Source of the DNA: a virus
Virus record (IMG/VR): IMGVR_UViG_3300014039_000009
Coordinates: 1-38,166 of that record
Length of the DNA: 38,166 nt
Strand: one strand, 5' to 3'
The position numbers and the translations under genes are program-made. The notes under the pieces are model-generated. The model saw only the letters and a program-made list of their open reading frames with translations, ran no database searches and was not told where the DNA came from. Below, in pieces: positions 325 through 26,936 of the stretch. Each line of letters begins with the position of its first letter. Position 1 is the first letter of the stretch.

Positions 325-555
325 ATGGTAGACATGAAGGGCAAGAAGAAGGGCTCTACATGTAGGCTTGTATGCATCTCTTATGCAGATGCATATGAGC
401 TCCCGATATTATTCACAAGCAGTTTAGACGAGATTTCGGAATTTACAGGCGTTAAGAAAAAATCAGTAGCCGAGCAGTTATGCAGACAGAGAAGAAAACA
501 TACACCAGTCATTTGTATCGGTGGCTTCCATGTAGAGCAATTAGAGAAGATGTGA
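325..555 (+). CDS. Small hypothetical protein, possible HTH/DNA-binding
   Basis: 76-aa ORF. The segment LPILFTSSLDEISEFTGVKKKSVAEQL resembles the short DNA-binding modules found in phage regulators and homing-endonuclease tails. A terminator follows. Confidence 0.5.
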   Translation: MVDMKGKKKGSTCRLVCISYADAYELPILFTSSLDEISEFTGVKKKSVAEQLCRQRRKHTPVICIGGFHVEQLEKM

Positions 556-6032: not shown

Positions 6033-7163
6033 ATGTTAACGCCAACCGATTTTAGAGAAATAGAAAGTGAAGTTTCACGAATTTATTCTGATATCGAGAC
6101 AGATTTAGTTAGAGCAATCTGTCGATATGTTGCCAAACACGAAGGCGATATCTCTATCGAAGAATGGCGAGCAAAAAAAAATATCGGTTGGTCTTCTTTT
6201 AAGCTTAATCTTGAAAAGATAGCATCAGTCGACTCTAAAAAAATATCAAAACAAATAGATACCCTCGTTGAAAAGGTTATCAATAAAAACAATGCGTCCG
6301 ACCAAAAAATAATAAAAGCAATACATGAATACAAGAAAGATTCAGAGCAAGAAGTAAAAATTGAACCTACACAAATTCAAAAAGAAAAAATTCGTGCAAT
6401 TATCGAAAATGCAAAGAATGGCATCAATCTGACAAATACAAGAGCAATTACAAATTCTCAAAGAATATTTGAGAGTGCAGTTAATAGAGCATACATAGAA
6501 GTCTTTGAGGGAAATCAAACCTTATCAAATGCAGTTGCAAAAGCTACGAAACAATTAGCAAGAGAAGGAATTACTGTTGCCAATTATAGCACATCTGGAA
6601 GACCTTATCAAATGTCAATAGATGCAGTTGTTAGAAGGAATGTTGTAACATCTGTTGCTCAGGCAACCTCTCAAATGACCTTAGAGACGGCTCAACAGAA
6701 TAATTGCGATTTGGTTAAAACCTCGGCACACCTTGGAGCAAGACCTGAGCATTATTTATGGCAGGGTAAAGTTTTTTCGATCTCGGGCACGAGTGATAAA
6801 TATCCTTATCTTTCAGACCCTCAAGAATCAGGAGGGACAGGTTATGGTACAGTGGATGGGCTATGTGGTTGCAATTGTAGGCATTTTTTCTTTCCTTACG
6901 TCGAAGGCTTTAATCCTGCATCTTATGGCATAGAAGATGCTACAGCATCAGAGAATGAAGAGATTTATCAAGCTACCCAAAAACAAAGATATTTAGAACG
7001 AGAGGTTCGTTCATGGAAAAGAGTGTTAAAAGTGTCACAAGACCAAAAAAACGCAAACGATATAAATACTGCGAATTTAAAAATTCAGGAATACGAAAGC
7101 AGAATAAAATTGCTTACAACTAAGTATGGAATCCCTCGACAGAAAGAGAGAGAGGAAGTTTGA
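6033..7163 (+). CDS. Minor head / head-morphogenesis protein (SPP1 gp7 / Mu F-like)
   Basis: Position after the portal gene and the motif GLCGCNCRHFFFPY typical of this family. Confidence 0.8.
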   Translation: MLTPTDFREIESEVSRIYSDIETDLVRAICRYVAKHEGDISIEEWRAKKNIGWSSFKLNLEKIASVDSKKISKQIDTLVEKVINKNNASDQKIIKAIHEYKKDSEQEVKIEPTQIQKEKIRAIIENAKNGINLTNTRAITNSQRIFESAVNRAYIEVFEGNQTLSNAVAKATKQLAREGITVANYSTSGRPYQMSIDAVVRRNVVTSVAQATSQMTLETAQQNNCDLVKTSAHLGARPEHYLWQGKVFSISGTSDKYPYLSDPQESGGTGYGTVDGLCGCNCRHFFFPYVEGFNPASYGIEDATASENEEIYQATQKQRYLEREVRSWKRVLKVSQDQKNANDINTANLKIQEYESRIKLLTTKYGIPRQKEREEV

Positions 7164-23528: not shown

Positions 23529-23754
23529 CTAGAGTTTATGGCTCTTCAAGGGTATAGAGAGCAGTTTAAAAAGTAAACAAAAGCCCCCTCGGGCATTCAG
23601 AGGGAGCAGGGGGTGTAGAGTTAACTACACATTGGTAGAAATTGTTACACAGCTACCAAATTGATTAAAATTATTTTAATCCACAACTTTCGTTGACGTG
23701 TTTAAATATAGATTAGCTTTCTTGCTCTGTCAATCTTTATTTTTTTTTAATTAA

Positions 23755-23786
23755 AGGGCTGACGATTAAATCAGCCCTAGTTTTTT
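23755..23786. terminator. Bidirectional rho-independent terminator
   Basis: agggctga-cgattaaa-tcagccct, with a T-run downstream (agtttttt) and a T-rich tract upstream (tttatttttttttaa) that places an A-run 5' of the hairpin on the minus strand. It sits between convergent operons. Confidence 0.8.
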
Positions 23787-24692: not shown

Positions 24693-24992
24693 TTAGGCTC
24701 TCAATTCTCCTAATTTCCTTATAATTTCTTCCTCAGTTACACTTTTTTTAGGATTAGTAAAACCAATAAAAAAAAGAATCTTTTTTAGTGCAAGTAATTT
24801 TTTCTTTTGCAATCCCCCGACGCTGAGGTTAAGAAAATCAGCAACAAACCTTTCATCTTGCATTCTTGAGTATGAGCGTGCAAGAATTTCTTTTTCTAAA
24901 TCTGTAAGCATCGCAAGTTCACAGATTTTCCTTAAAGAGTATTCGTCTATACTCTTTAAACTTTTTGTGAGTAAATTTCTTCTTATATCCAT
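24693..24992 (-). CDS. Small sigma-70 region-4-like HTH regulator (99 aa)
   Basis: LTDLEKEILARSY...ADFLNLSVGGLQKKKLLALKKI resembles sigma region 4 and ArpU/YlxM-type HTH domains. No SD is visible upstream. Confidence 0.6.
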   Translation of the reverse strand: MDIRRNLLTKSLKSIDEYSLRKICELAMLTDLEKEILARSYSRMQDERFVADFLNLSVGGLQKKKLLALKKILFFIGFTNPKKSVTEEEIIRKLGELRA

Positions 24993-25011: not shown

Positions 25012-25027
25012 TGTTATTATAATAACA
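25012..25027. promoter_or_regulatory. Perfect 16-bp palindrome tgttattataataaca (candidate operator containing TATAAT)
   Basis: Read directly from the sequence; 20 nt upstream of the start of the sigma-like gene. Confidence 0.5.
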
Positions 25028-25079
25028 GTTCAATTTCACTACTAAAAACTTACAAAAAACTTACTTTGCGACAAAATGA

Positions 25080-25193
25080 TTAATAAAAAGACAGATTGTT
25101 AATTTTCTGAAAGATTGTAAATTTTTCTTTACAACTTGATTTTAATCTTTTATAGTTTTCGACATAAAGAAGTAAATCTTCCTTATAATCCAT
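25080..25193 (-). CDS. Possible 37-aa ORF (not in track)
   Basis: Hand translation gives MDYKEDLLLYVENYKRLKSSCKEKFTIFQKINNLSFY. The GGAAGG RBS lies inside the 3' arm of a hairpin. Confidence 0.25.
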   Translation of the reverse strand: MDYKEDLLLYVENYKRLKSSCKEKFTIFQKINNLSFY

Positions 25194-25198
25194 ATTTT

Positions 25199-25233
25199 GC
25201 CTTCCCTGTCCTTGGAATGGGTAGGCTTTTTTT
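25199..25233 (+). terminator. Plus-strand intrinsic terminator
   Basis: gccttccc pairs with gggtaggc (8 bp, one mismatch), followed by ttttttt. Confidence 0.6.
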
Positions 25234-25239
25234 ATGCGT

Positions 25240-25281
25240 AAAAAAAGCACCTAGCAACACCTCTTTGAAGTTGCTGGTGCT
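25240..25281 (-). terminator. Minus-strand intrinsic terminator
   Basis: 12-bp stem agcacc(t)agcaac / gttgctggtgct. The A7 run on the plus strand gives a T7 run after the hairpin on the minus strand. Confidence 0.65.
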
Positions 25282-25410
25282 AAATATTTATTCTAGTAGA
25301 CTTATGATACATTAATTATATATCAAAACTCCGAAATCCACTACAAAAAAAGTTATAAAAAATTATAGTGCTAAGATTTTTATAGTTGGAAAAGGTGTAA
25401 AAAAATCACA

Positions 25411-25560
25411 ATGCGAAAAAGAAAAGAAAGAGAGCCATTATCTGATGAACAGAAAGAGAAGAGGAGTGAAGCAATTTCGAGGATTGTTCTTCCCTTGGCT
25501 AATGCTACCTTGGCAAGTATTGCTCGGGTTGTGGTGGAACACCTATTCAAAGGAGCATAA
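25411..25560 (+). CDS. Possible 49-aa ORF directly upstream of the holin (not in track)
   Basis: Hand translation gives MRKRKEREPLSDEQKEKRSEAISRIVLPLANATLASIARVVVEHLFKGA. Its stop lies 1 nt before the holin ATG. Confidence 0.35.
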   Translation: MRKRKEREPLSDEQKEKRSEAISRIVLPLANATLASIARVVVEHLFKGA

Positions 25561-25561
25561 C

Positions 25562-25915
25562 ATGACAGAATTAATTACAACATTAATTCTCTTTGTTGAC
25601 CAAACATTAATCTATTGGGTTCCATTTTTGGTTGGCGTTGGCTACGCATTAAAGCATTGTACAAAGCTATCAAATAATCTTATCCCTCTAGCAGAGATAG
25701 GAATCGGAGCAATAATCGGGTTATTGTACGGTCTTGCAACTTATGCAGATTCAGAACTTGGTTTTCTGACAGTGCTAGGTTTTGCAGGACAGGGAGCATT
25801 GATTGGTATTATAGCAATCGCTCTTTATGACATGATTCATGGAGTTATCAAGCAGAGAGGATTGTGCAAGCTTGAAAAAAAAGAAAAAGCTAAAAAGGAA
25901 GGTGAGCCAAAATGA
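25562..25915 (+). CDS. Holin-like membrane protein
   Basis: ATG at 25562 is preceded by AAAGGAG, so I prefer it to the track start at 25445. It has three to four hydrophobic segments and a charged C-terminus. Confidence 0.7.
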   Translation: MTELITTLILFVDQTLIYWVPFLVGVGYALKHCTKLSNNLIPLAEIGIGAIIGLLYGLATYADSELGFLTVLGFAGQGALIGIIAIALYDMIHGVIKQRGLCKLEKKEKAKKEGEPK

Positions 25916-26325
25916 AAAAAATTGATTTTTCCAAAATGAGAACATTTACTTGTAATTTTATCGGTGCAATCATTGCCACAATCGTTGCATTCTTGTGCAC
26001 ATTGCCTTGGGGAGTTGGCTATGCTATTGACTGGGTTACAAACCTCATTCTCTATACTGTAATCATAGAGGTTTCTCTCGATTTAGTTATCAAGCTAAAA
26101 AATCAGAAAGAGTTACTCTGTTGGCAGTATTATGTTGGTCTTGTAGCAATCCTCTTGTCTAACTGGAGTTTCATGGCAACAGCAAAGCAGACAGAGAACA
26201 AGCCTTTCTTTATTTGGCTATCCATAACTGCTGCACTTACTGCAGTAACTGGCATTTGGTGGAATAAGGCAGTTAAGGGAGCATACGAAAAGAAGAAAGA
26301 AATTACTGAAGTCAAGGAGAATTAA
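25912..26325 (+). CDS. Four-TM membrane protein (second holin or antiholin candidate)
   Basis: ATGA overlap with the holin gene; hydrophobic segments. Confidence 0.65.
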   Translation: MKKIDFSKMRTFTCNFIGAIIATIVAFLCTLPWGVGYAIDWVTNLILYTVIIEVSLDLVIKLKNQKELLCWQYYVGLVAILLSNWSFMATAKQTENKPFFIWLSITAALTAVTGIWWNKAVKGAYEKKKEITEVKEN

Positions 26326-26327
26326 AG

Positions 26328-26936
26328 ATGTGGAAAAAATCATTTATCTTTTTGGTGGTCTGTCTCTTGGCAGCATCTTCACTTTATTGCTATCCCTCTT
26401 GGGTCTATGGCAAAAAGGAAACTCTGCAAAAAGTGGAGATTCCTGTAGAGACCAAGGAAGAGATTCCAACAGTGGCAATGGAAGAGGAACCAGCACCAGC
26501 AGAGGAGCAGGAGACACCCGAGAGCTCTTTGAACTCGGACGAACCATTGCCAAACGAAACATTGAAGGAGCAGGGAGAACAGTTGAAAAACTCTCTGAAA
26601 GAGGAGAAGGTATCAACGGCAGTAATCGAACAGGTATCTGAATATATCGAAAATACAAATCTCGGAGTTGATGTTATGACAGAGGCTTATAATTTAGAAG
26701 TTGAAAATCATGCAGAAACAGAGAGAGCATTAAAGAAGGTAACAAATGCTTTTCGTTTTACTGTTAATCCTTATATATCCTTTGATAAGAATTTTAAACA
26801 GCTAGAAGGCTATGGCTTGAATTTGATTGTAGCAAAGAAAGGCTTAGGAATCTCAATTGGAGCATATAAGCCAAGCTTCAGTTTTGAAAATTGGGAAGAC
26901 ACTCTGTTAACCACTGGTTTGTCTTTTACCTTTTAA
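26328..26936 (+). CDS. Secreted protein with an acidic/Pro-rich linker and an OMP-like beta C-terminus ending in Phe
   Basis: Signal peptide MWKKSFIFLVVCLLAASSLYC; alternating hydrophobic pattern in the C-terminal region; terminal GLSFTF. Confidence 0.7.
   Translation: MWKKSFIFLVVCLLAASSLYCYPSWVYGKKETLQKVEIPVETKEEIPTVAMEEEPAPAEEQETPESSLNSDEPLPNETLKEQGEQLKNSLKEEKVSTAVIEQVSEYIENTNLGVDVMTEAYNLEVENHAETERALKKVTNAFRFTVNPYISFDKNFKQLEGYGLNLIVAKKGLGISIGAYKPSFSFENWEDTLLTTGLSFTF

Follow-up and report, generated by a model that had tools for sequence, protein, structure and literature searches.

The stretch of DNA analyzed here (the window) is a complete viral record of 38,166 bp with direct terminal repeats at its ends. 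It belongs to a temperate, siphovirus-like phage whose records come from human-gut metagenomes only. Packaging, head and tail genes occupy the plus strand up to 23528, and the tail operon is ended by a plus-strand terminator at 23755-23785. An 11/12 promoter-like site on the minus strand in the gap between tail genes and cassette (TTGACA-17-TATATT, 23705-23733) adjoins this terminator and is oriented so as to read back into the tail genes. Next comes a minus-strand reverse cassette comprising a putative 37-aa ORF (25193..25080), the gene of a 99-aa sigma-70 region-4-like protein (24992..24693, hereafter the sigma-4-like protein) and genes of 164-aa and 108-aa proteins. The lysis side returns to the plus strand with a 49-aa ORF (25411..25560), the holin gene (25562-25915, matching Phage_holin_5_2 and phrog_1129), two further genes and the integrase gene int (27314); in the prophage, attP/attR lies at the end of the lysis genes. 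The 49-aa ORF, first in the lysis operon, is a real gene: homologues of 45-51 aa stand immediately 5′ of the holin gene in every clade examined, and three of the three substitutions among the haplotypes described below are synonymous. Its product may be a holin partner. No endolysin domain was recognizable in the 137-aa and 202-aa proteins encoded after the holin (25912-26936), for which Pfam and PHROG gave no significant lysin match. Just upstream of the packaging genes, the usual site of the late-gene activator in Firmicutes phages, a 77-aa ORF (388-498, plus strand) gave a second Sigma70_r4_2-like match, too weak to reach the family cut-off (E 0.005).

Cassette and lysis genes diverge from a 418-bp gap that holds two opposed intrinsic terminators, and the original prediction of two back-to-back convergent terminators about 6 nt apart was borne out when both strands were folded. 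T1, on the plus strand, consists of a hairpin at 25199-25226 (GCCUUCCC-N12-GGGUAGGC, with one U.U mismatch; dG = -11.4 kcal/mol) and a U7 tract at 25227-25233. T2, on the minus strand, has a hairpin at 25281-25247 with a stem of 11-12 pairs, one bulged A and the loop AAAGAGGUG (dG = -16.4 kcal/mol; z = -4.2 relative to shuffled sequences), and its U7 tract spans 25246-25240. Both present the G+C-rich stem-loop and the run of at least six U by which intrinsic terminators are recognized in sequence, and only 6 nt (ATGCGT) separate the two U-tracts. The energies are far from negligible: among the 52 sites obtained by folding the sequence upstream of every run of six or more T on both strands of the 38-kb genome, T2 ranked first in stability and T1 fifth. 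By a rough estimate, the chance that two of the five best sites would be convergent within 50 nt is about 0.01. A single bidirectional terminator was considered and rejected, because the U-tracts belong to two distinct hairpins and the minus-strand sequence after T1 reads AAAAUAU. With a U-tract on the plus strand only, T1 should thus terminate in one direction.

Profile searches with the 99-aa protein retrieved 14 near-identical loci (clade A), which fall into six haplotypes. Within clade A, hardly any position varies between the A-run before T1 and the 99-aa gene, a span that includes the 37-aa ORF, and T1 itself is unchanged throughout; on the lysis side, beginning with T2, the variation is 8-14%, and identity breaks exactly at T2. 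Two further loci, L032 and L033, were reached through holin homologues at 65-70% identity. In L032, the holin is 66% identical and the divergent layout is alike, the reverse cassette is unrelated (proteins of 69, 57, 116 and 33 aa), and T1 has no counterpart. At the equivalent place on its minus strand, L032 carries TGGATA-16-TATACT with an extended -10 TG, one of only two promoter-like sites found by a scan of 620 bp, and this is followed by a leader of about 27 nt alignable with that of the window, a hairpin (GAGUACCACCGAC-UUAUAAAGAGGU-GUCGGACGGUGCUC) and a run of eight U. The homologous unit of L032/L033 scored 60.9 bits with covariance model R1, which recovered no further copy in 238 kb of collected loci. 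When viral, genome and metagenome collections were scanned for both hairpins with exact and degenerate patterns, only one more clade A copy and unrelated matches came back; a match in L038 with a similar loop was set aside as an ordinary terminator that follows a head gene. Against GenBank phages, megablast and tblastn gave no match, and no relatives were found in viral and genome collections using the sigma-4-like protein, the holin or the integrase as queries.

The second clade also carries changes in the T2 stem. Relative to the window, L032 has one A-U pair replaced by G-C and one G-C pair by C-G, with both sides changed in each case, and a third pair replaced by U.G, which is valid only in the minus-strand RNA, while the loop AAAGAGGUG is identical at nine of nine positions. 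Clade A contributes two stem substitutions of its own, both giving G.U in the minus RNA and C.A in the plus RNA. Over seven sequences from two clades, the only ones on which the covariation rests, 98.7% of the cells of the 11-pair helix are paired, compared with 17-53% when the partners were slid as a control. The stem thereby shows two compensatory double changes and three one-sided changes giving G.U in the minus strand only, so that all three strand-informative substitutions keep pairing only in the minus-strand RNA. The T2 variants also lost more stability on the plus side, their folds reaching -15.4, -12.7 and -8.5 as plus RNA versus -16.2, -15.5 and -12.3 as minus RNA. Across these two clades, T2 is a structured RNA element kept through compensatory changes.

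For the minus strand, the original prediction had an RNA of roughly 120 nt running to T2 from a promoter at 25391..25362 (TTCCAA-N18-TATAAT). A short RNA ending at T2 is retained in our reading, with another start and a smaller size. The -35 of the 25391..25362 site matches at only 3/6 positions, three of the six haplotypes (L005/L013, L006 and L007/L010) have CATAAT in place of its TATAAT, and the site overlaps the lysis promoter P_lys and is absent in L032; it is probably not the working promoter. The candidate that we favor, P1 (TAGTGG-N17-TATAAT, 25343..25315, minus strand), stands back to back with P_lys and has a -10 (TATAAT, 25320..25315) that is invariant among the six haplotypes between flanks that vary, and a poor -35 (2/6). 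The pattern TAGTRG-N17-TATAAT occurs twice in the genome, at P1 and at the cassette promoter P2, a post hoc count given that the pattern was derived from these two sites. Part of the region upstream of P1 belongs to a block that every lysis module retains, with or without T2, so some of the conservation of P1 may serve P_lys. The geometry of P1 and T2 predicts an RNA of about 68 nt (25240..25308), formed by a 27-nt AU-rich 5′ tail, the T2 hairpin and its U-tract.

Control of the cassette by attenuation, also proposed at first, is not supported. The minus leader is only about 27 nt long, variable and unstructured; neither Rfam nor folding of the leader gave an aptamer or an antiterminator pairing upstream of T2, and Rfam returned nothing meaningful for the region at gathering or relaxed thresholds. 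On these grounds a riboswitch, a T-box and a leader attenuator all lack support. Furthermore, L032 has its cassette promoter, a strong TTGACA-17-TATGCT, downstream of the T2 counterpart, a position that excludes a leader-attenuator role for T2 in that clade. Because the loop AAAGAGGUG is fixed while the stem co-varies, the minus RNA is probably a functional small RNA rather than a by-product. This loop is a Shine-Dalgarno look-alike, and one tentative, rather doubtful extension is that the RNA running from P1 to T2 represents a new phage small-RNA family associated with this holin module's control region, in which the invariant Shine-Dalgarno-mimic loop would be the working part, binding CU-rich (anti-Shine-Dalgarno-like) RNA or protein and thereby influencing the timing or occurrence of expression of the lysis operon or the neighboring reverse cassette. 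Among all ribosome sites of the phage, trans targets predicted for the minus RNA and for the plus-strand RNA discussed below were no better than those of shuffled RNAs.

On the other side of P1, the lysis operon has a predicted promoter of its own. P_lys (25368..25377, plus strand) is an extended -10 element, GTGCTAAGAT, with a predicted start near 25384. In the alignment of clade A, L032, L029, L034 and L041, its pattern GTGnTAnnnT occurs exactly once per sequence, in the same register, 23-33 nt 5′ of the start codon of the small ORF, and the invariant positions (TG, -12T, -11A and -7T) are those that sigma-A reads in an extended -10 promoter. P_lys lies downstream of both T1 and T2, and its sequence TGCTAAGAT would be the lysis-promoter element relevant to holin expression in the model proposed below. 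A block of the form GATATCCAA...CCGA, 40-70 nt further upstream of the extended -10, is also shared among clades and may be a regulator binding site; no motif common to the lysis control region and other intergenic regions was found.

The position of T1 recurs in clades whose lysis genes follow tail genes or the cassette on the same strand. There, a sense-strand intrinsic terminator was found just before the lysis promoter region in L020 (12-bp stem and U8), L042 (z -3.5) and L041/L034/L029, a recurrence across clades which indicates that a terminator followed by a lysis promoter is a recurring design and that T1 is its positional equivalent in the window. The L020 terminator (6646-6703, clade B) is strong and lies 45 nt before the small lysis ORF, within an apparent single operon running from the sigma-4-like gene to the holin gene; in L002, an A-to-G and a G-to-A change in this terminator preserve pairing. 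The holin module itself (small ORF, holin, two further genes and int) recombines with different upstream cassettes. Among loci with the same lysis module, L029-L031 (1731-2975) and L034 (816-1808) carry a reverse transcriptase gene (RVT_1) beside a DUF6273 tail-fibre gene, a pair that is probably a diversity-generating retroelement, and L005, L019 and L027 have a radical-SAM gene among their tail genes.

The reverse cassette likewise appears to be separately controlled. Its predicted promoter, P2 (TAGTAG-N17-TATAAT, 25016..25044, minus strand), has a -10 overlapped by a perfect 16-bp palindrome, TGTTATTATAATAACA (25012-25027), and is conserved in three clades. The motif TGTTATAATAATAACA directly 5′ of the ATG is kept in clades B and C, and the P2 counterpart in L027 reads TTAACG-17-TATAAT with TG (10/12 match). 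The 99-aa gene lacks a Shine-Dalgarno sequence, and in clades B and C the ATG comes only 8 nt after the -10, a distance that suggests a leaderless mRNA. The AlphaFold model of the 99-aa protein (P0001; pLDDT 90.8) matched ECF sigma region 4 best among PDB entries, for example, SigD4 (rmsd 0.7-0.9 Å over 54 residues), and then KorA, with weak E-values and close superpositions; no Pfam sigma domain was matched. Judged by this model, the sigma-like protein of the original prediction does have a region-4-like helix-turn-helix (HTH) fold, and the absence of region 2 makes it a small HTH regulator rather than a complete sigma factor.

The sigma-4-like gene and the two genes downstream of it form a cassette that occurs in three layouts (the window; L002 and L019-L027): inverted between tail and lysis genes in the window, co-directional and directly upstream of the holin operon in clade B, and divergent from lysis-like genes in L027, where a 59-aa ORF precedes it whose product may be ribbon-helix-helix-like as judged by eye, with no Pfam support. 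The idea of an invertible segment was examined, and no convincing inverted repeats flank the reverse cassette. In one metagenome contig, L014 (101-2392), the 3′ end of the sigma-4-like gene is replaced and followed by Y1 transposase and DDE transposase genes, which points to an IS insertion into the cassette. Another explanation would have the paired terminators as just a relic or chance arrangement, functionless today and left behind when inversion and recombination produced the divergent layout. The three layouts would fit this, as would the haplotype identity break exactly at T2, which is what a module junction would give. We nevertheless give this explanation only a very slim chance, since T1 and T2 are two of the genome's five strongest terminator-like sites, are perfectly placed, and include one that has been kept by compensatory change.

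Between T2 and the cassette lies the 37-aa ORF, MDYKEDLLLYVENYKRLKSSCKEKFTIFQKINNLSFY (25080..25193, minus strand), which was not called by gene callers and is putative. It has a start codon and a Shine-Dalgarno sequence, GGGAAGG, that falls in the T1 hairpin, on its 3′ arm, where folding of the minus strand leaves none of it unpaired. A 56-aa version started at GTG was ruled out, as this frame crosses the U-run of T2, which varies from 6 to 9 in length among relatives. Neither Pfam, PHROG nor protein comparison gave a homologue of the 37-aa ORF, and it is not similar to the 59-aa ORF that replaces it in L027. In 14 relatives it shows one substitution, which is non-synonymous, and no sign of coding constraint. 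The interval from T2 to its start holds no promoter for the ORF. Transcription can reach it only by passing T2.

On the plus strand, the promoter-like site put forward originally, P(+) (TTTACA-N17-TATAGT, 25128..25156), is present as a 10/12 match and is the best plus-strand site of the whole gap in every haplotype. It would start an RNA of about 70 nt near 25162-25164, ending at T1 (25233). The genome holds 17 sites of this quality on both strands, from which about 0.03 would be expected by chance on the right strand in the 120 nt upstream of T1; genome-wide, such sites are no commoner than chance. P(+) is invariant in the 14 relatives, yet the surrounding DNA is equally invariant, and no counterpart was found in other clades. 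A plus unit that is both specific to clade A and invariant makes the comparison uninformative about it. Hence, of the two short opposing units originally proposed, the minus one is kept as a block in a second clade, and the plus one (P(+) to T1) is predicted from sequence alone.

The predicted plus RNA would overlap the mRNA of the 37-aa ORF, an overlap deduced from the 10/12 promoter-like site and T1, and this invites a reading as a type I toxin-antitoxin-like or sar/OOP-like locus in which the RNA of about 70 nt would block translation of a small ORF whose Shine-Dalgarno sequence is locked in a hairpin. The complete sequestration of that sequence agrees with this idea. The predicted RNA would cover it together with the first 10 codons, it has a CUUG (YUNR) apical loop, and its only strong predicted duplex is with the ribosome site of the 37-aa ORF. 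Type I toxins, however, are small hydrophobic membrane-active peptides, whereas the 37-aa product is hydrophilic (GRAVY -0.61), with a top Kyte-Doolittle 15-residue window of -0.11 and no membrane segment. The type I reading is thus weak, for an ORF that is hydrophilic, without homologue and behind T2, and the lack of coding constraint, the missing promoter and the confinement of the plus unit to one clade weigh further against antisense control, which we regard as quite improbable.

The original prediction likened the locus to a lambda PR′-6S-tR′ arrangement in duplicate with antitermination, and a reading in this spirit would make the terminators points of regulated read-through. A phage factor would allow passage through T1 into the lysis genes and/or through T2 into the sigma-4-like cassette, as lambda-like or attenuator control points, or the facing promoters would act as an interference switch. 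The geometry of promoter, RNA of about 70 nt and terminator on both strands is what such a system would show, P(+) is the best sigma-A-like plus-strand site in the gap, the 37-aa ORF is transcribable only by passing T2, and several clades have terminators 5′ of their lysis genes. However, both downstream operons have conserved promoters beyond the terminators, namely, P2 in three clades and P_lys in five. At the sequence level, lysis genes preceded by their own extended -10 downstream of both terminators are not those of a Q module, whose lysis genes lack a promoter of their own. Moreover, PF06530 and PF03589 gave no match to a Q-type antiterminator at E ≤ 1 in the complete 38-kb genome. The short variable leader without antiterminator pairing, aptamer or Rfam match argues against attenuation in the same way, and in L032 T1 is absent and the cassette promoter comes only after T2. 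The lambda-like reading fails on the Q gene, which is missing, on the promoters conserved downstream and on the layout of L032, and regulated read-through in general appears improbable.

We therefore favor, at roughly even odds (about 0.5), a model in which two convergent terminator-capped short units constitute a two-way transcriptional insulator between two operons with their own promoters; the promoter activities, the termination events and the roles of the RNAs in this model we infer from the DNA. P_lys and P1 would act as back-to-back promoters, P1 starting the minus RNA of about 68 nt and T2 ending it at 25240. By stopping P1 transcripts, T2 would keep transcription that leaves the lysis control region out of the 37-aa ORF and the sigma-4-like cassette, the latter being driven by the palindrome-bearing P2. 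In the opposite direction, T1 would end at 25233 any plus-strand transcript leaving the reverse cassette; its most likely input would be the RNA of about 70 nt from P(+), whose sequence is complementary to the 37-aa ORF's ribosome site; tail-operon read-through is another possible input. The holin operon would then be expressed solely from P_lys at 25368-25377. What speaks against a two-unit model is that, if P1 is real, keeping a promoter whose transcripts stop after 68 nt makes sense only if the RNA is functional.

A simpler version would dispense with the short units altogether. T1 and T2 would work as passive insulators only, P1 and P(+) would not be real promoters, no dedicated short RNAs would be made, and the hairpins would halt stray transcription such as host read-in past attR through the lysis genes, tail read-through and antisense noise. 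This version, unlikely on balance in our view, has several points in its favor: both flanking operons have their own promoters, promoter-like sites are not above chance frequency, Tn916 offers a precedent, and, with the prophage lysis genes ending at attP/attR, inward host transcription would meet T2 before the first co-oriented phage genes. It leaves unexplained why a fully conserved loop, unneeded by a plain terminator, sits on the co-varying stem of T2 and why a promoter-like site lies equally far upstream of T2 in both clades, and it leaves about 150 bp of invariant DNA between T1 and P2 without a role. Should the small RNA prove functional, a phage lysis module would have a newly recognized regulator linked to it; otherwise the locus would be an ordinary insulator.

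Early holin expression kills the host, so how temperate phages keep stray transcription out of their lysis genes is of biological interest; to our knowledge, this has been little described for phages of gut Firmicutes. The locus offers a compact layout for it, with two opposed terminators, a conserved extended -10 lysis promoter and a candidate small RNA absent from Rfam. Several known systems share parts of this layout. Lambda PR′-6S RNA-tR′ likewise combines a constitutive-looking promoter, about 70 nt of transcript and a strong terminator upstream of lysis genes, whereas the phage has no Q-family match, carries its own lysis promoter downstream and has the arrangement duplicated on the opposite strand. 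The small phage cis-antisense RNAs sar of P22 (against ant) and OOP of lambda (against cII) resemble the predicted plus RNA in their length of about 70 nt, their own promoter and intrinsic terminator and, here as a prediction, their complementarity to the ribosome site of a small gene; in the phage, however, the target ORF is putative and behind a terminator, and there is no sequence or Rfam relationship. Firmicutes prophage type I loci (yonT/SR6, bsrG/SR4 and fst/RNAII) also comprise a small ORF with a sequestered Shine-Dalgarno sequence, a convergent small RNA and terminators between them, but the hydrophilic 37-aa product is not a membrane peptide. The convergent-promoter switch prgQ/prgX of the Enterococcus plasmid pCF10 similarly has face-to-face promoters, short terminated RNAs and read-through into downstream operons. 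As the two predicted RNAs of the phage end 6 nt apart and do not overlap, counter-transcript-driven attenuation of the prgQ/prgX type is impossible here.

The closest experimentally established analogue, by comparison of layouts, is the terminator T1 of the Gram-positive mobile element Tn916, which was shown experimentally to act as an insulator and is accompanied by a separate antiterminator (Wirachman and Grossman 2024, PMC11658703). Unlike Tn916, the phage locus has two opposed terminators in a divergent control region, at least one of which appears to cap a short RNA, and no canT-like antiterminator was identified in the phage. As in Tn916, an intrinsic terminator of the phage would bar outside transcription from genes that are harmful if expressed early, the protected genes being separately controlled.
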